Below are positions 3,786 through 54,107 of a stretch of 64,000 bases of DNA, in pieces. Numbering within the stretch: the stretch's first letter is position 1; the number at the start of each line of letters is the position of its first letter. The DNA is from a phage. Location of the stretch: the sequence record OZ346201.1, one strand, 5' to 3'. The notes beneath the pieces are model-generated. The model was not told the DNA's origin. It saw only the letters and a list, made by a program, of their open reading frames with translations, and ran no database searches. Made by a program: the position numbers and the translations under genes.

Positions 3786-4829
3786 ATGACTAAACCAGTT
3801 ATCCCTCTTGATATTTGGGCCAATCAGGATGTTGTGCTTGAAAATACGGGAGAGTTGAATAAGTCTCAACCAAAAAAAGAAGAGAGATTGAAAGGTTGGG
3901 ATATGACACAAAGAGTGGCATGTGAAGTTGTTAACTTTGAACTTCACATGCTTTCTGCGTGGTTGAAGCATTTAACAGAAGATGTTGTCCCAGGATGGGA
4001 TAATAGATTCTTAAGGGTCACTAATAATCTAGCAGACGTTCCAGACAAAGCTGCTGCACGTCAAGTTCTCAATGTATACTCACCTGAAGAAATGGACGAT
4101 CTATATGTTGACAAGTCTGGAGACATAATGACTCAGACTCAAACTTTAGGTCTTCAAAGAATCGAGTTTGCATCTGCGTCAACAGACAGTGCGGCAATAT
4201 ATACCACCATAACTCCAGACAAGACGACGATGGATTTCTGGATTATGGACAACATCGGTGGTGCTGACGGCACAGACCTTGATGATCCTTCTCACCAAAT
4301 AGATGGGTTCCGTTGGAGATTTCAACCTTCTGGTGGGCAGCCTGTGTTTTCAGCTATGAAGCTCAATGCTATAACTGCCAACCGTGCAAGACTGGCTATC
4401 CAAGGAAATCTTGAATGCAACGATGCAAAAAGTTCCTCTGCAAATGCCAATGCGGTCACGATACCAAGAGCCACTGTTAATGGACAACAATCCTGCGGAA
4501 GCGCTCAAATAGGTGGAAGAGTTGATTGTAACGATGAAACCGTCAGGGGCCAATATGCAACAGTTGGTGGAAGAAACGTGGTCCGCAGGGTAAATGGTAA
4601 CGGCGCAGACAGTAGTGGTAACCTTACTATTCCTATGCCTAGCAGAGGGGTTGATGATGTAAGGATAGCAAACCGTTTCAAAACCACCTACAGAGAGTCA
4701 AGAGTCTACCCTGGACATGTGATGTGCTCTGGTAACTACGCTTATAAACACCCTTATCAAGGTGATTACTGGACAGGTGCTATCCAAAAACTTGTAAATG
4801 GTCAATGGATCACTATATCTTATGCTTAA
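3786..4829 (+). CDS. tail fibre protein, paralog 2
   Basis: SD AGGAGA; conserved N- and C-terminal ends shared with 1731..2771, different central domain; ATG at 3786 preferred over GTG at 3783. Confidence 0.75.
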   Translation: MTKPVIPLDIWANQDVVLENTGELNKSQPKKEERLKGWDMTQRVACEVVNFELHMLSAWLKHLTEDVVPGWDNRFLRVTNNLADVPDKAAARQVLNVYSPEEMDDLYVDKSGDIMTQTQTLGLQRIEFASASTDSAAIYTTITPDKTTMDFWIMDNIGGADGTDLDDPSHQIDGFRWRFQPSGGQPVFSAMKLNAITANRARLAIQGNLECNDAKSSSANANAVTIPRATVNGQQSCGSAQIGGRVDCNDETVRGQYATVGGRNVVRRVNGNGADSSGNLTIPMPSRGVDDVRIANRFKTTYRESRVYPGHVMCSGNYAYKHPYQGDYWTGAIQKLVNGQWITISYA

Positions 4830-17286: not shown

Positions 17287-18768
17287 TTACTTAGCGTACT
17301 CGATTAATTCCACAGTTTTCCCAAAGCTCGGGATATAATTTTTATTATACCCCTCAGTGAGGACCCATAGAGTATCGTACTTTTTCCACTTGTTGTCAAC
17401 AACCTTTTGTTCAAAGTTATGCTCAAAGTATAGGTCGGTCAGGACGATGACATCTTTTGCATTAGGTATGTTGGCATCCAGATACTCGAACACGCAAGCA
17501 GCTGTTGTGCCCCATGTTGAGTGGACCTCATAGTTGATCATCTCGTCTATGTTGCCGCGAGTGTATACTTTAACCTCTCCAACCTCAGTTGACCAACAGA
17601 ACATTGTAACCTTAAACTCTTTATACAGATTGCACAATCCGGTGATTTCATTGAACATTTTCTTTAAAGTTCTTTGAGAGATCGAGCCAGAAACGTCTAA
17701 AGCCACCACAATATCTATAGTGTTTTCCGGATTACGACCAGGAACAATAACGTGCTGGTTCTTGTTTATAGCCCCAACTTTTCGCATTGTGCTGGTCAAA
17801 GACCCAGATCGGCGACCAGGTTTTCTGTAGGTCAGTTCGGCCTTTCTTTTAGACAACATACGTTGCTTAATGATGTCTATATAGTTGATTACAGGCTTAC
17901 CTCTGTTCTTGACAAACTCACGCACCGCCTCAGGGCAACGGCCTCCGGACGCTTGCATTGCTGCCTCCAGCATATCACCAGAGTCCTGCATGGCCTGATC
18001 TTTATCAGATTGGCTGATTACAGGTTGTGGCTGATCATACCCCATAGCCTTTCCAAGATTATCACTGGTGCCACCGTTCCCACTCATGTGATCATCGGTT
18101 TGTCGCTTATCACTTTGAGAGTTCTCACCTTTACCGTTCTTACTTTTACCGTTATTCTGATCTCTTTGCTTATCAAGAACTGCATAAACGTTCTCAGCAA
18201 TCCATCCATGAAACTTCATGTCGCAGTAGCAGCTGGCTAAGAAGCCAAAAGGCTTACCTTTCATGAACGTAGTGCTTTTCCCCTTCGGGAAGAAAACACA
18301 AGGAGGTTTGCTAAAGTCAACCACAAGGCCTGTGTTGATAACGTGATCACAAGCAATATTGAACAGTTCCGGCTCAAAGCTTTTACCACGGACTAGGTGA
18401 TCACAGATAATATGCCCCACCTCATGTGACAGAAGGAAGGCCACCTCTTTCACAGATTTTGGGGAATAGAAAACTTCAGCCATCTCAAACTGCTCGTCAG
18501 TTAGAGAAGCCTTAAGAATAGCCTTGCGTTCATCAGCCAATCCCATAATGAACTCAGGACTGTAATAGATGCGTTTATGGTCGGTTGCCATGGTGGAGCA
18601 CCATGTGTGGTTTTCTACGAACTGCAACCCTGACAGTAGTGTGCCATAAAACGGCAGCTTTTCAAGGAGATACATACGTGCAGCCTGCAACATTCTCAGG
18701 GCATCATCTTTCTGCGAGGCAATGATTTCTGAACTTCTGCTATCCATTAAAACTCCAGAAGGGGCCAT
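17287..18768 (-). CDS. vWA-domain protein with N-terminal HExxH metallopeptidase-like domain
   Basis: HEVGH motif (..AFLLSHEVGHIICDH..) in N-terminal half; MIDAS-like VVALDVSGSI (DxSxS) in C-terminal half. Confidence 0.75.
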   Translation of the reverse strand: MAPSGVLMDSRSSEIIASQKDDALRMLQAARMYLLEKLPFYGTLLSGLQFVENHTWCSTMATDHKRIYYSPEFIMGLADERKAILKASLTDEQFEMAEVFYSPKSVKEVAFLLSHEVGHIICDHLVRGKSFEPELFNIACDHVINTGLVVDFSKPPCVFFPKGKSTTFMKGKPFGFLASCYCDMKFHGWIAENVYAVLDKQRDQNNGKSKNGKGENSQSDKRQTDDHMSGNGGTSDNLGKAMGYDQPQPVISQSDKDQAMQDSGDMLEAAMQASGGRCPEAVREFVKNRGKPVINYIDIIKQRMLSKRKAELTYRKPGRRSGSLTSTMRKVGAINKNQHVIVPGRNPENTIDIVVALDVSGSISQRTLKKMFNEITGLCNLYKEFKVTMFCWSTEVGEVKVYTRGNIDEMINYEVHSTWGTTAACVFEYLDANIPNAKDVIVLTDLYFEHNFEQKVVDNKWKKYDTLWVLTEGYNKNYIPSFGKTVELIEYAK

Positions 18769-34672: not shown

Positions 34673-37012
34673 ATGAGTATGTGGTCTTTCGATTTTGAGT
34701 CATCCGGTTTGCTGGAAGACCCAGATCTTTATTATCACTGCGGTCTGTTTAAAGAGCTGAATAAGAACCGTTTTATGCTGTTCCTTCCTCTAAATGACCG
34801 CACACACTACTCCGAGGAGGATATAGAAAAGGCTAAGAACTTCATTCTGTCAAAGAAAACTCTTTATAAAGATTTTGAAGTTCGCATAGCAGATTTTTCG
34901 GAGTTGGAAGGTTGGCTTACAGGCAATTCTGACTGGTCACCAACAGCTTTGAACTGCCATAACTGCTACAGTTATGACTTTATGCTAATGGAAAGATTAT
35001 CCGGTATTCATTTTGATATGTTCCGTGATCCTAAATGCATGGGGACTATCAACGACCACCAGGTTAACCTGTTTGATACGTTGGCTATGAGCCGAATCTT
35101 GTGGCCTGATCGCCCTTTACCAAAAGGTTGTCCGGACGCTGTATTCAACCCGGTTACTAAGAAAATGCAACCTGTTGGTCCTCACGGCCTTATGGCATGG
35201 GGCTACGCCCTTGGTAACCAGAAAGTTCAAATTGATGACTGGCGCGATCTTCCGTTGTGGAAGTATGTGGATCGTGTATTCGAGGACGTTATCATCCAGG
35301 AGCTGCTCTGGAAAGAGCTGGTAGCGGAATCAAAAGGTGTATTCTACGGCAAATCTGACATGCAGAACTTTATGTACGATCCAGCCAAAGAGAAGCCGAA
35401 AGGGTTCAAGAAGATCACCTGGAAGAACGCATTACGTCGAGGCATGCTGCAGCACTTCCTGATGGAGCTGCAGGCCCGTCAGGGTGTATACTTCGACATA
35501 GATGGAGCTATTGCTTTACGTGACCGTTGCGATGCGTGGATGAAAGAAATCGCTGATCGTGTTGAACCACAACTACCTTTAAAAGAGCTGTCAATGTCTC
35601 AGCGGCCCAAGTTCCCTGAAAAGCCGTTTAACCAAGACGGGACAATCTCTAATAATGGTTGGAAATGGTTAAAAGATAAGCTTGGCTATCCTGTAGACAT
35701 GAGTGCTTTAGAGTTCAAAGCCCCGCCTAAGCGAGCATTTACCTCTACAGGAGATGTCAGCAAGATGGGGATAAAATGGTGTGAAGAGATGGGCTGCAAA
35801 GACCCCGATAAGATGGCTGATTTCTTGAGAGGCTATATTAAGGGCACCTCCACACCACAACCCTTACCTAAAGAGCTGATGGATCAGGCAATAAGTGATC
35901 TGCAGCAGAAGCGAATGCCTGACTGCAAGATACCTATGAAAATCAGCAATCAGGACGACATCAAGCGATACCTAATCAGTGCTGGTTGGCTCCCAACAAT
36001 GTGGAGAACTAAAGATGTAACTAAAGACAGCAAGAAGAAAGCTTTACCTGATGCAGATGTTGATGCACGAGTATATGCATATATGGACGAGCTTTTGGAG
36101 TCAGAGTATTGTGACCTAATTATCAACTTCTGGAACAAAACTGATGCTAAGTTCCAGACAACCGTGCACAAGTTCCGAAGCTTTCCTAACTCCGAAAGGA
36201 TTAAAAAGGAAGTATTCGGGAAAATACGTAGAAAAGCCAGGGCACTTATTACTTCTCCGCAACTGAAAGATACGTTTGGACACCTATGCCCAAATCTTGA
36301 AAAATTGAACGGAGAGATGGCTAAAGATATCGTCTTGTGGTTATCATTGCGAAACCGCAGATCGGTCCTTGATCCAATCAAGGAGGATAAGGTTGATACT
36401 GGTCTTCTTAATCACCCACGTTTGAAGATTGACCATAAGCTTCCTGCTAAAAGCTCTGGATTAACAAACACTTCCAGACAGAAACACAGTATTTGTGCAA
36501 ACATGCCTAAACCATCTCCTAAAGTGGTTATGGGTAAAGAGATGCGTAGTCTGTGGGGTGTTCCTCCGGGATACTTTGAGATTGGTATTGACGGGTCCAA
36601 CTTAGAACAGCTTATCGGGGCTTGGGGTGCCTTTGAGTTCGACAACGGCCTGTATTATGATGTTGTAAGTAACGGAGACGCACACCAAAACAATGCTGAG
36701 GCATATACAAAAGTGGCAGGCAGAGAGGTGTCCCGTAACGACGGTAAACCTATCACGTATGGGGTTATGTACGGGGCACAAAAAGATAAAGTTGCAGATA
36801 TGTTGGACATCTCCCCAGAGTTACAGGTGTTTGATGGACTCTGGGATGCCAACCCAGGTCTTAAGGGGCGCAAAGAGGATCTGGAGAAATTCTGGAAGCA
36901 ACAGGTAAGAAGTTTATCTACTCTTTTGATGGTCATGCTATCTGGACCCGATCTAAACACTCTTTACTTAATGCATACCAACAAAATGGCGGTGCATCGT
37001 TGTGTGACTTAG
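34673..37012 (+). CDS. DNA polymerase, family A, with 3'-5' exonuclease (reading frame breaks near 36900)
   Basis: Exo I FDFESSGL; Pol A motif A DGSNLEQ and motif B REVSRNDGKPITYGVMYGAQ; polymerase similarity continues in another frame from about 36901 to the stop at 37093-37095 (..FDGHAIW..NAYQQNGGASLCD..WYDEGV..). Confidence 0.75.
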   Translation: MSMWSFDFESSGLLEDPDLYYHCGLFKELNKNRFMLFLPLNDRTHYSEEDIEKAKNFILSKKTLYKDFEVRIADFSELEGWLTGNSDWSPTALNCHNCYSYDFMLMERLSGIHFDMFRDPKCMGTINDHQVNLFDTLAMSRILWPDRPLPKGCPDAVFNPVTKKMQPVGPHGLMAWGYALGNQKVQIDDWRDLPLWKYVDRVFEDVIIQELLWKELVAESKGVFYGKSDMQNFMYDPAKEKPKGFKKITWKNALRRGMLQHFLMELQARQGVYFDIDGAIALRDRCDAWMKEIADRVEPQLPLKELSMSQRPKFPEKPFNQDGTISNNGWKWLKDKLGYPVDMSALEFKAPPKRAFTSTGDVSKMGIKWCEEMGCKDPDKMADFLRGYIKGTSTPQPLPKELMDQAISDLQQKRMPDCKIPMKISNQDDIKRYLISAGWLPTMWRTKDVTKDSKKKALPDADVDARVYAYMDELLESEYCDLIINFWNKTDAKFQTTVHKFRSFPNSERIKKEVFGKIRRKARALITSPQLKDTFGHLCPNLEKLNGEMAKDIVLWLSLRNRRSVLDPIKEDKVDTGLLNHPRLKIDHKLPAKSSGLTNTSRQKHSICANMPKPSPKVVMGKEMRSLWGVPPGYFEIGIDGSNLEQLIGAWGAFEFDNGLYYDVVSNGDAHQNNAEAYTKVAGREVSRNDGKPITYGVMYGAQKDKVADMLDISPELQVFDGLWDANPGLKGRKEDLEKFWKQQVRSLSTLLMVMLSGPDLNTLYLMHTNKMAVHRCVT

Positions 37013-37095
37013 TTGGAATACTCATGCACCACCAGATGGTGAAGCGTGGGTGGTACGATGAAGGTGTTCGTCGTATTATTTATTACCATAAATAA

Positions 37096-37361
37096 CATTG
37101 TGGCTTCATAGAGTAATCTATGTCGAATAACCTCTTTAACTGCGGGAAGCCTAAACCTTATGGCAAGGTAATCCGCAACGAAGCGCTCAAAAGAGCGAAC
37201 GCTCAGAGGCCATTCCGAAAGGAAGTAGACCAGCAAGTGCGGTCGAAATGGGAGGATTCCTGTGGTTGCTTATCATAGGAATATGAGATGGTCCGATCCT
37301 ACGTGAAAACGTATGGCTATGCACGTAATGGTGCGGGTAGCTTAACGACCTACCTGAACTA
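37096..37361 (+). other. intervening segment inside the split DNA polymerase gene (intron or insertion candidate)
   Basis: Lies between the polymerase body and the ORF carrying the Pol A C-terminus; stops in the relevant frames; contains a ~52-codon ORF (MSNNLFNCGKPKPYG..). Confidence 0.4.
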
Positions 37362-37718
37362 TTGGATGAGTACCAACTTCAAGTGCCTGACACACCGAAG
37401 TATAAGACTGTGTACACCTTCGACACAATTGAAGAACTGGAAGCATTTAAGGCAGAGCAGGAAGCCAAACTTCATGTGTTCGACGGTCATAAGTACAAAA
37501 AGGCACGCAAGGATGAGGACGGAAACGAAGTGGTTGACAGAGACGGAAACACGGTGTACGATCCTATCCTGAACGATGACGGAAAGCTTGAACTTATCTG
37601 GAGCCCTGTGGGTGAAATGGTGGTACATTGCTTCTGGCAAGCTTCTAAAATGATGGGAGTCCCGTTCCAGATCACAGGTGAATACTTGTGTGGTCGTAAT
37701 TGGGGTGATTGTCACTAA
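37362..37718 (+). CDS. ORF carrying the DNA polymerase A C-terminal segment
   Basis: Ends ..MMGVPFQITGEYLCGRNWGDCH, matching the Pol I family C-terminus (..VEVGSGENWDQAH); third reading frame relative to the polymerase body. Confidence 0.55.
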   Translation: MDEYQLQVPDTPKYKTVYTFDTIEELEAFKAEQEAKLHVFDGHKYKKARKDEDGNEVVDRDGNTVYDPILNDDGKLELIWSPVGEMVVHCFWQASKMMGVPFQITGEYLCGRNWGDCH

Positions 37719-37767
37719 TGTAAACTATCAACACATGGAAGTGTTGTTGAGCAAAGAGGAGACTTTT

Positions 37768-38052
37768 ATGGTAGTAGAACCAACAAAAACATTTACATCC
37801 ATGACTATCCCTGTTATTATGCAGGTGGAGTGTGTTCAGGTATCTCAAGTGTGGCCTGGCACCAAAATCCCAACAGGGCCTGATTTCTTTCAGGTTGGGA
37901 AAGTGTACAATGTCTGGAAGGCACCAGATTGTTACCCTTTCATTAAAGATGACCGTGGGATGCTGTGGTATCTTGGAAATGACTTGACACTGCACCTTGG
38001 GAATGCTATTATTGCAGTATTCAGACTTAACAAGAAGGAGACCGATCAATGA
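37768..38052 (+). CDS. small protein, paralog family B
   Basis: ATG at 37768 with AAAGAGGAG upstream; shares F..GK.Y.V...D..G..WY motif with the next two ORFs. Confidence 0.55.
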   Translation: MVVEPTKTFTSMTIPVIMQVECVQVSQVWPGTKIPTGPDFFQVGKVYNVWKAPDCYPFIKDDRGMLWYLGNDLTLHLGNAIIAVFRLNKKETDQ

Positions 38053-53458: not shown

Positions 53459-53743
53459 ATGGCTATTGTTACCGCTGGCGATGTAGTAGAAATGGAAGCA
53501 AAATACTTAAAAGCGGGTATGCACATCCTACGGAATGATCAAGAGCTATTATTAACGATGGTTGACTATAATCACGGCCAGGATTATCCAAGCATCGACT
53601 ACTTTTTTGAGTATGTTGATGAAGAGTTGAAAGAGGATGAGGCCTATTGCGGTGAGTTCTGCAACTTCTTTTGTCCTGATGAGGTTGTAAAGGTTATTTA
53701 TCAACCTGGCGTAGCTTTCCCGCTGCACGCTATCAATAAATAA
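53459..53743 (+). CDS. hypothetical acidic small protein
   Basis: 94 aa; followed by ACCTGGCGGGGCC-GAAAA-GGCCCC hairpin. Confidence 0.5.
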   Translation: MAIVTAGDVVEMEAKYLKAGMHILRNDQELLLTMVDYNHGQDYPSIDYFFEYVDEELKEDEAYCGEFCNFFCPDEVVKVIYQPGVAFPLHAINK

Positions 53744-53798
53744 ACCTGGCGGGGCCGAAAAGGCCCCCAATTATGAAAATAAAGAGAGGCAAATCATC

Positions 53799-54032
53799 AT
53801 GATGGAACAAATTAAACGCGCCGAGGCTATTAATGGCAACGTGATCTATTTTGTCAGCAAAAACGAAAAAGGCGTACCATATGCGGCAGTAATAGTACAA
53901 CCTGACGGCGATTATTGGTTTACTGTGTACGGCGCTTATTCTTTTGGGCGTCCAGTGCATGATAAAATTTTGAAAGTAGCGAACCCTACCGGGAAGAATA
54001 TCACAGCAGAAAAATTTTTTGAAAATAGTTGA
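53799..54032 (+). CDS. hypothetical small protein
   Basis: 77 aa; stop codon TGA embedded in the -35 TTGACA of the next promoter. Confidence 0.5.
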   Translation: MMEQIKRAEAINGNVIYFVSKNEKGVPYAAVIVQPDGDYWFTVYGAYSFGRPVHDKILKVANPTGKNITAEKFFENS

Positions 54033-54056
54033 CATGACCATATAAGACTGTAATAT
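54029..54056 (+). promoter_or_regulatory. sigma70-type promoter
   Basis: AAAATAGT-TGACA-N16-TAATAT. Confidence 0.6.
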
Positions 54057-54107
54057 ATAAATCAAAGGGGGCAACGAACCCCACCAACTACAAAGAGGAT
54101 AAAAATC

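Follow-up and report, generated by a model that had tools for sequence, protein, structure and literature searches.

How a complete enzyme can be encoded by a DNA polymerase gene that lies in three reading frames is the question raised by one locus of the phage record OZ346201.1. The 64,000-nt stretch analysed here (the window) belongs to a Vequintavirus, an rV5-like phage of E. coli. It is 94-98% identical to rV5, and a tRNA scan of it found none. An earlier note, made from the sequence alone, had reported that the polymerase ORF 34673..37012 leaves the polymerase-like sequence near 36900, that the similarity continues in the adjacent frame (GKKFIYSFDGHAIW...NAYQQNGGASLCD...WYDEGVRRIIYYHK) up to a stop at 37093-37095, and that a third-frame ORF, 37362..37718, terminates in GEYLCGRNWGDCH. 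These observations were confirmed, with the point of departure located near 36896. The gene was found to be interrupted by a self-splicing group I intron and by a frameshift, which are two separate and unrelated interruptions.

Both interruptions fall in one and the same gene, which encodes a DNA polymerase of family A (T7-like). Over 732 aa the product of the exon-1 ORF is 98.9% identical to the polymerase ORF of rV5, and a match to the T7 polymerase was found (E = 2e-13, residues 633-811, ending in HDE). PHROG 17 and PHROG 8888, both 'DNA polymerase', were matched at 1e-94 and 1e-139, respectively, and the spliced product aligned with PHROG 8888 from end to end (profile positions 1-295 of 295). 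The PHROG and T7-structure matches were used because the Pfam match of the whole protein to DNA_pol_A (PF00476) was weak (23.1 bits, below the cut-off of 34.3). Homology extends across motifs A, B and C and includes the catalytic HDE. A polymerase match was found in 674 phage records, and a single uninterrupted protein of 925 aa spans the junction in the intronless sister phages. The product of the 118-aa ORF starting three bases upstream of exon 2 is present on 176 public contigs, where it is named 'DNA polymerase' or 'hypothetical protein'.

The segment between the two coding parts, previously put at about 500 bp, is an intron of 275 nt (37090-37364). The search for a group I core with Rfam, which the earlier note had proposed, gave a match to RF00028 of 64.7 bits against a gathering cut-off of 50 (E = 4e-14), covering model positions 1-253 of 253 at 37080-37315. 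Alignment to related phage polymerases, proposed likewise, fixed the intron ends and located the lost G of the frameshift. The ends are set exactly by closely related intronless phages, which read ...TAT TAC CAT/GAY GAR... (the slash marks the insertion point); L004 and L005 served as the intronless alleles for placing the boundaries. Typing phage 14, naam and many others, whose polymerases are 97.9% identical, have intronless alleles that run colinear with the window and lack precisely these 275 nt. The 5' splice site lies after U37089, and the intronless alleles end the same exon at ...TATTACCAT. Excision joins ...IIYYH to DEYQLQV... and rebuilds motif C (HDE), exon 2 opening with its DE; the intronless phages have the spliced YYH/DEYQLQV as uninterrupted sequence. 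The rebuilt HDE aligns with H653-D654-E655 of T7 in a single stretch through VHDEIQV, and it is this H/DE that forms the true motif C, in place of the YDE previously read in WYDEGV. The insertion point between the His and Asp codons corresponds to T7 H653/D654 and to 881/882 of E. coli Pol I. The C-terminal part of the polymerase had been rightly assigned to the ORF 37362..37718, with the correction that exon 2 begins three bases inside it. An intein was rejected, as an in-frame UAA stands two codons past the junction and the frame of exon 2 differs from that at the end of exon 1. Coordinates of all features are collected in the table.

Table. Features of the interrupted polymerase gene and its intron (positions in the window)
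Feature	Position	Strand	Basis or remark
Polymerase exon 1, original-frame part (M1..W741), with exonuclease region and motifs A and B	34673..36895	+	ORF list; rV5, PHROG and T7 alignments
In-frame patch, ELGQRVIDAL of relatives to ELQVFDGL	36821..36838	+	Alignments; unique to the window
Frameshift site, GG against GGG of relatives (TTC TGG GAA GCA)	36894..36895	+	Alignments to relatives
Polymerase exon 1, part moved to the adjacent frame, (E)ATGKKFIY...RRIIYYH	36896..37089	+	Intronless alleles; translations of relatives
Group I intron, IA2-type, 275 nt, without homing-endonuclease ORF	37090..37364	+	RF00028; intronless alleles; covariation
P1	37086-37091/37098-37103	+	U37089·G37100 wobble; CCAU/AA with UUGUGG
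P2	37107-37122	+	
Mechanical ORF, 52 aa, wholly within intron RNA	37120..37278	+	No Pfam match; overlaps conserved paired core P4-P8
P3	37131-37136/37250-37255	+	
P4-P5	37141-37177	+	
P6/P6a	37178-37202	+	
P7	37208-37212/37289-37293	+	
P7.1	37213-37224	+	UUCC-GAAA-GGAA
GUA linker between P7.1 and P7.2	37225-37227	+	
P7.2	37228-37244	+	
P8	37256-37282	+	
Mechanical ORF, 94 aa, starting in 3' part of intron and continuing out of frame in exon 2	37288..37572	+	No Pfam match
P9	37298-37316	+	
P9.1	37321-37334	+	
P9.2	37335-37355	+	
Second G-run shortening, GGG against GGGG in all E. coli-phage copies	37335..37337	+	Unique to the window among E. coli-phage copies
Intron terminal G	37364	+	
Polymerase exon 2, DEYQLQV... 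to GRNWGDCH	37365..37718	+	Intronless alleles; alignments; stop 37716-37718

The secondary structure was examined by covariation in six homologous ORF-less introns at the same site, from Vequintavirus, Avunavirus and Vibrio phages. Over 71 pairs, 98.1% of 425 cells were paired, and 28 of the pairs showed changes on both sides. Neither the pairing nor the two-sided changes were matched in any of 500 shuffles, and slid-control pairing reached just 32-42%. Covariation supports the core helices P3-P9 and, with them, the P3/P7 pseudoknot. P1 is invariant in all six homologues together with its wobble pair, in which the last exon base, U37089, pairs with G37100; the terminal G37364 (omega-G) directly before exon 2 is likewise kept in all six. 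The P7 pseudoknot helix is 100% paired, with one compensatory change that is specific to the window copy. Between P7 and P3' the intron possesses P7.1 and P7.2 linked by G-U-A, an arrangement described as the hallmark of subgroup IA2 (PMC3428280). P7.1 has only 4 bp in the window copy, and covariation support for this region comes from P7.2, which has two covarying pairs. A helix predicted by RNAalifold (277-283/350-356) was dropped, as it competes with the canonical and better-supported P7, and a hairpin first guessed at the 3' end (GCUAU/GUAGC) was replaced by P9.1 and P9.2 on the basis of covariation. The Rfam match above cut-off, the exact intronless alleles, the covariation and the restored HDE establish the identity, boundaries and structure of the intron and the protein that it interrupts, and they fully support the self-splicing intron listed among the explanations in the earlier note.

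The only ORF contained in the intron, of 52 aa, has no match to any Pfam family, and no intron-encoded endonuclease ORF was found. Both this ORF, whose rV5 counterpart bears the name hypothetical ORF 227, and the 94-aa ORF, which corresponds to ORF 226 of rV5, are most likely spurious.

Introns of the window type, 99.6% identical, were found in rV5 (NC_011041, 126785-127060; identity across the whole intron) and at least 22 other records; examples among other Vequintavirus genomes are RudolfGeigy (MZ501102), MaxTheCat, LL12 and PDX. No exact copy was found; the best matches, all of 276 nt among those listed, were 99.6% identical. The rV5-type copies share with the window the insertion site, the flanking exon codons and the lack of an ORF, and differ from it by one G at the P9.1/P9.2 junction, where the window has GGG and not GGGG. 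The RudolfGeigy record gives the polymerase CDS as a join of two pieces; subtracting the intron of 276 nt from its 3054-nt span leaves 2778 nt, as long as the CDS of the intronless phages. The intron is likewise annotated through a spliced CDS in BASEL-collection records. In the rV5 reference record it is unannotated, and two polymerase fragments and two small ORFs within the intron are given instead. The 2013 paper on rV5 described a 775-aa polymerase and reported introns in the terminase gene only (PMC3606486).

A longer allele with a homologous ribozyme core occupies the same site in APECc02, FFH2, CM1, HeinrichReichert and others. It comprises 842 nt, its P6 region contains an HNH ORF of about 168 aa, and its P5 and P7.1 extensions are longer; against the window it shows compensatory changes in P2, P8 and P9, and its exon 2 has the same synonymous codons as the window (GAT GAG TAC CAA). 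The HNH-containing introns of L003 and L011 were undetected in the Rfam search at the gathering cut-off, presumably due to the large ORF insert, and their homology was established by alignment in place of Rfam. The site exists in three allelic states: intronless, with the short intron, and with the 842-nt intron bearing the HNH ORF. The window copy cannot promote its own homing because it has no endonuclease gene.

Outside this group, the T7-like phages PhiI and W31 (AY769989, AY769990) have a polymerase intron at site 881 by the numbering of E. coli Pol I (PMC3428280), which is the H/D junction of motif C, as in the window. Those introns, likened here by description only, also lie in a family A phage polymerase and belong to subgroup IA2; they carry an HNH ORF in P6a, like the APECc02-type allele and unlike the ORF-less window copy, and their hosts are podoviruses. 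In Pectobacterium phage CB7 (Certrevirus, Vequintavirinae) a blastn match of 75% identity over 73% of the query falls in the polymerase/HNH region; the polymerase gene of CB7 has two HNH-containing introns. Splicing of the CB7 polymerase introns was shown by RT-PCR (PMC7344957), and by analogy the window's own copy is expected to splice as well. SPO1, SP82, Bastille and Pf-WMP3 also have self-splicing group I introns in conserved catalytic regions of family A polymerases, and these code for nicking HNH enzymes such as I-HmuI. Their insertion site is position 674 in the fingers subdomain, which is not the site used in the window (PMC3428280).

The second interruption is the loss of one G from a GGG run, where the window reads TTCTGGAAGC. 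GGG is present at the site in all nine aligned relatives. The missing base had earlier been placed at CAGGTAAG near 36903; all relatives put it in the GGG run of TTC TGG GAA GCA. Insertion of a G at CAGGTAAG does restore the frame, but KQQ then replaces the conserved EAT, and FWEATGK is invariant, other genera included. With the G put back into the run, the translation of the displaced part of exon 1 equals the sequence of the relatives. A 91-nt window sequence over the frameshift was matched exactly by none of 104 phage records, the best matches (98.9%) differing by the one-base gap only. In the 181 codons past the shift, read in the frame of the relatives, the differences are almost all synonymous (15 synonymous and 0 non-synonymous against L003 and L004; 16 and 1 against L005). 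These codons remain under purifying selection, which argues against the long-standing pseudogene considered previously. The frameshifted 779-aa product was looked up among 15 billion collected proteins and not found. A search of IMG/VR for the one-G-short sequence gave no match, and the sole vequintavirus contig there has GGG at the site. All rV5 ORFs of at least 200 aa with a counterpart in the window are unbroken there, with differences at ORF ends only.

Two other changes unique to the window lie nearby. In the patch at 36821-36838, two codons are deleted whole, three changes are synonymous and two are non-synonymous. The patch is shared by none of 105 phage records and had no match in IMG/VR or JGI metagenome contigs. 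It does not compensate for the frameshift, as its net change of -6 nt is in frame, and a small inversion was set aside since comparison by eye with the reverse-complemented rV5 segment revealed no match. The shortened G run at 37335-37337 lies in the intron at the P9.1/P9.2 junction, 441 nt from the frameshift, and leaves the reading frame unaffected; the Vibrio phage homologues have GGG at this position too. The patch and both G losses fall within about 515 nt around the point of intron insertion. The region is not simply of low quality, because the patch looks like real codon-wise divergence, with the loss of entire codons and synonymous changes at third bases. The few frame-breaking indels in the rest of the assembly make an isolated error less expected and point to a local cause. 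One-base loss in a homopolymer is a typical base-calling error. The missing G is most likely a sequencing or assembly error, a fresh mutation being less likely. Sequencing error, which had been named in the earlier note, is the best-supported reading of the frameshift.

If the missing G were real, it would be a fresh loss-of-function frameshift, in the genome or in the dominant molecule of the sequenced sample, giving a 779-aa protein without motif C; it could have arisen in a defective variant or a mixed population, or through mutagenic repair close to the site of intron insertion. The given sequence does contain the shift, the large genes are otherwise clean, so that random error is not especially expected, and of the three clustered changes at least the patch looks biological. 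Against this stand a polymerase kept in all relatives and presumably essential to a lytic phage, the lack of any decay downstream, the GGG in every inspected relative, with no phage record matching the site exactly, and the typical nature of such a loss as a base-calling error. A real loss is considered unlikely. Less probable still is that the patch and both G losses are all genuine, as scars of error-prone double-strand-break repair in a polymerase-defective genome that persists by complementation. The trigger in that case would be the homing endonuclease of a co-infecting sister phage, and persistence would be in a mixed phage population.

Two readings in which the sequence as written yields a working enzyme are both considered extremely improbable. 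Programmed ribosomal frameshifting or transcriptional slippage could give full-length polymerase by a shift anywhere in the 148 nt (36865-37012) over which the two frames overlap. Neither a slippery X XXY YYZ heptamer nor a homopolymer of at least five bases occurs in that interval, re-pairing of tRNA-Trp from UGG to CUG would probably be poor, and the region is in one frame in every relative; we know of no precedent for recoding in this polymerase family. Alternatively, the exon-1 and exon-2 products might assemble as two polypeptides without RNA splicing, as the split gp43 of some T4-like phages does. The exon-2 ORF has a possible TTG start at 37362, and many GenBank records list two separate 'DNA polymerase' CDSs. 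The break, however, splits the catalytic motif C, separating H from DE, and the sister phages without the intron encode one continuous protein of 925 aa. Between the exons lies a covarying group I ribozyme with the U·G pair and terminal G, the bases upstream of 37362 (CCTACCTGAACTA) contain no Shine-Dalgarno, and a homologous intron splices in CB7 (PMC7344957). The two-polypeptide polymerase raised in the earlier note is not supported by these observations.

The full account that we consider probable is a group I intron at H/DE together with one G lost from GGG, most likely as an artefact. The pre-mRNA would fold into the P1-P9.2 ribozyme, and an external guanosine would attack after U37089, which takes part in the U·G wobble of P1. 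Exon 1, its 3'-OH now free, would then attack after the terminal G37364, while a short P10 helix (GAUG with CAUU) may keep exon 2 in place. The predicted junction is ...TATTACCAT/GATGAGTAC..., and the ligated mRNA would code for ...RRIIYYHDEYQLQV...GRNWGDCH; unspliced RNA would be translated only as far as the UAA, two codons past the 5' splice site. Without an endonuclease ORF the intron would be passive, a descendant or ancestor of the mobile HNH-carrying form of the sister phages. The missing G would be one of a local error cluster with the second lost G at 37335-37337, and the real phage would have a normal polymerase of about 923 aa.

The intron is already known in kind from many sister phages, and nothing about it is new here. 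Its value is mainly for annotation: the gene should be entered as join(34673..37089, 37365..37718), a single spliced CDS with a flag for the frameshift, and the small intron ORFs should be removed; the rV5 reference record is still fragmented in the same way. The locus provides a natural series at H/DE of the intronless, ORF-less and HNH-carrying states, and the same site is also occupied in Vibrio phages. Without adding a new principle, the series illustrates the cycle of homing-endonuclease gain and loss.

Two things interrupt the family A DNA polymerase gene, namely an already known, passive intron of group IA2 at the H/DE junction of motif C and a single-base homopolymer loss that is probably not biological. 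The ORF 34673..37012, the continuation of polymerase-like sequence in the adjacent frame up to the stop at 37093-37095 and the ORF 37362..37718, in which the GEYLCGRNWGDCH terminus sits, were all recovered in the ORF list and raw sequence. The earlier note had described them accurately except for three details, namely the missing base, the segment size and motif C. The region 34673-37800 shows 98.4% identity to Escherichia phage rV5 (Vequintavirus) and is matched by 136 phage records. rV5 shows 90-97% identity to the whole window, and the closest record in the phage collection reaches at most about 96% identity over 25 kb. No tRNA genes were found in the window (1-64000).

A group I intron search had been proposed for the intervening segment. 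Rfam scan of the whole window identified RF00028 at 37080-37315 (64.7 bits, cut-off 50, E = 4e-14, full model covered), and no other Rfam family exceeded its threshold anywhere in the 64 kb. A tblastn survey using the predicted spliced C-terminal 233 aa of the polymerase sorted polymerases about 97-98% identical to each other or to the query into three allelic states (Table). Alignment with two intronless genomes placed the gap exactly at 37090-37364, with the exon junction reading ...TAT TAC CAT / GAY GAR TAY CAR.... The intron is therefore 275 nt long, against the approximately 500 bp estimated before, and exon 2 starts at 37365. The segment is a group I intron, and is predicted to splice itself. 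The self-splicing intron reading of the earlier note is supported by the Rfam match, the intronless alleles, covariation and the restoration of HDE on joining the exons.

Table. Polymerase alleles and sequence changes in the window and its relatives
Feature	Window position	Compared with	Remark
Patch, 6 nt shorter	36821-36838	rV5, RudolfGeigy	
One G lost from GGG of TTC TGG GAA, GG left	36894-36895	rV5, RudolfGeigy	cause of frameshift
One G lost from GGGG	37335-37337	rV5, RudolfGeigy	intron, P9.1/P9.2 junction
A deletion and separated A insertion	near 29.15 kb	rV5	non-coding, uncompensated
Extra C of rV5 itself, polymerase codon 6	34687	rV5	uncompensated
Intronless allele			one-piece match, 705 nt; e.g. 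O157 typing phage 14, naam, V18, slur16, Murica
Short-intron allele			two-piece match, 981 nt; e.g. MaxTheCat, RudolfGeigy, LL12, PDX
HNH-intron allele			two-piece match, ~1547 nt, annotated HNH homing endonuclease inside; e.g. APECc02, FFH2, CM1

For structure analysis, the window copy was aligned with homologous ORF-less introns present at the same H|DE site in five other phages: JLBYU08 and SYGMH1 (further Vequintavirus lineages), Avunavirus 24-2-1, and the Vibrio phages K460 and qdvp001. RNAalifold recovered P1, P2, P3, P4-P6, P7.2, P8, P9, P9.1 and P9.2; the canonical P7 pseudoknot was put in manually and one competing helix was taken out. In this hand-edited structure, standard pairs account for 98.1% of 425 cells, and of the 71 pairs 28 have changed on both sides. 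These pairing and covariation values were reached in none of 500 shuffles, and pairing fell to 32-42% when the partners were slid by 1-3 columns. P1 is formed by CCAU/AA with UUGUGG, the last exon base U37089 lying opposite G37100, and G37364 is the final intron base. P7 (GGCCA/UGGUC) shows a compensatory change from U-A to C-G specifically in the rV5-type copy. The window intron also contains UUCC-GAAA-GGAA followed by GUA and P7.2, which fits the P7.1-GUA-P7.2 signature of subgroup IA2 (PMC3428280). A putative 4-bp P10 can be drawn between GAUG of exon 2 and CAUU at 37096-37099.

Joining of the exons gives ...GWYDEGVRRIIYYH followed by DEYQLQVPD..., which would rebuild motif C. In a phmmer search of solved structures, the joined product aligned in a single stretch to T7 DNA polymerase (...yyhdeyql over ...wvhdeiqv), the HDE corresponding to T7 H653-D654-E655 (704-residue numbering). 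Hence, the intron divides H and DE of motif C, and the WYDEGV formerly taken for this motif lies 12 residues upstream of the true H|DE. YYHDEYQLQV is unbroken in the polymerases of other genera (Seunavirus FENT2, Mydovirus VIK251). The corrected spliced protein matched PHROG 8888 'DNA polymerase' over 1-295/295 of the profile, a match that runs through both the shift and the exon junction, and its Pfam DNA_pol_A match was sub-threshold only.

Comparison with rV5 and RudolfGeigy revealed three changes in the polymerase region which are the window's own. The intronic G loss is harmless because of its position at the P9.1/P9.2 junction and because Vibrio homologues also read GGG there. The frameshifting loss lies slightly upstream of the site near 36903 suggested before. 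All nine relatives fetched have GGG at this site, a 181-nt window query spans 188 nt in 40/40 relatives among the matches listed, and a 91-nt query across the site had an exact match in none of 104 records. FWEATGK is unchanged even in other genera. The 181 codons past the shift show no decay, with synonymous to non-synonymous ratios of 15:0, 15:0, 16:1 and 7:1 in the frame of the relatives. All rV5 ORFs of at least 200 aa with a window counterpart are unbroken in the window, differing at ORF ends only. From about 25 to 44 kb, the two G losses and three other items (Table) make up all uncompensated indels relative to rV5. Lytic phages need their replicative polymerase, and base calling is well known to drop single bases from G runs, so an artefact or assembly problem is the favored and quite likely cause, the loss probably not being biological. 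A real, very recent mutation is rather improbable. Decoding of the shift by recoding is highly unlikely, since the 148-nt overlap of the two frames contains neither a slippery heptamer nor a homopolymer of five or more bases, and an enzyme made of two polypeptides is hardly to be expected.

The artefact reading carries a caveat because the neighbouring patch looks like genuine divergence, not noise, as judged from its composition. It lacks two whole codons (GGA, AGG), carries three synonymous changes at third bases and two non-synonymous ones, and converts ELGQRVIDAL, a segment conserved across genera, to ELQVFDGL. The patch was absent from 105 phage records, IMG/VR and metagenome contigs. It may have come by recombination from a lineage not yet sampled, may be a variant favored by selection, or may reflect faulty assembly at this spot.

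In practice, the annotation should read join(34673..37089, 37365..37718) and carry a flag for the frameshift. Other irregular ORFs were also observed. On the minus strand at 53552-54074, a 185-aa rV5 ORF becomes two ORFs in the window; a C run (~53764) and a G run (~54072) differ there by single-base indels, hinting at a possible second homopolymer-associated frameshift. The ORF at 17287-18768 (minus strand) has 493 aa against 448 aa in rV5; the C-terminal ends diverge past a single-base difference near 17499, and either genome may hold the correct frame. In the rV5 record (NC_011041), the extra C splits the polymerase N-terminus into ORF 229 and ORF 228 (locus 1501-1604), and hypothetical ORFs 227 and 226 lie within or overlap the intron (locus 3956-4409). 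Both appear to be artefacts of the reference, in its sequence and its annotation.

rV5 and at least 22 further records carry the same intron at 99.6% identity with one gap. In the APECc02-type allele, the P6 region of this ribozyme holds an HNH ORF, and compensatory changes relative to the window copy occur in P2, P8 and P9. T7 D654 is equivalent to Pol I D882 in the standard correspondence, so Pol I position 881 marks the same H/D junction. This is the E. coli Pol I position of the polymerase introns of the T7-like phages PhiI and W31, which are IA2 introns with an HNH ORF in P6a (PMC3428280). Splicing of the homologous polymerase intron of Pectobacterium phage CB7 was demonstrated by RT-PCR (PMC7344957). 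In records of the BASEL collection, the polymerase is given as a join of two pieces; according to the BASEL paper, comparative annotation was used to set intron boundaries. The original rV5 paper gave a 775-aa polymerase and reported introns in the terminase gene only (PMC3606486), and the RefSeq record still has the polymerase in two fragments, along with two small intron-internal ORFs. The window intron is thus of a kind and place already described, and its sequence is, but for the one gap, already public.

Exon 2 opens with GAT GAG TAC CAA (37365-37376) in all intron-containing alleles and with GAC GAA TAT CAG in intronless alleles, so that each of the four codons differs synonymously. This contrast is consistent with co-conversion during homing or with endonuclease target protection; the U at exon-2 position 3 of intron-containing alleles would lengthen P10. 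In other genera of Vequintavirinae, the polymerase genes of Klebsiella phage vB_Kpn_K54_rec6 and Escherichia phage 24-2-1 have two intervening segments each, and in rec6 three HNH endonuclease genes lie within or adjoining the gene. Across the subfamily, the polymerase gene forms a mobile-intron hotspot.
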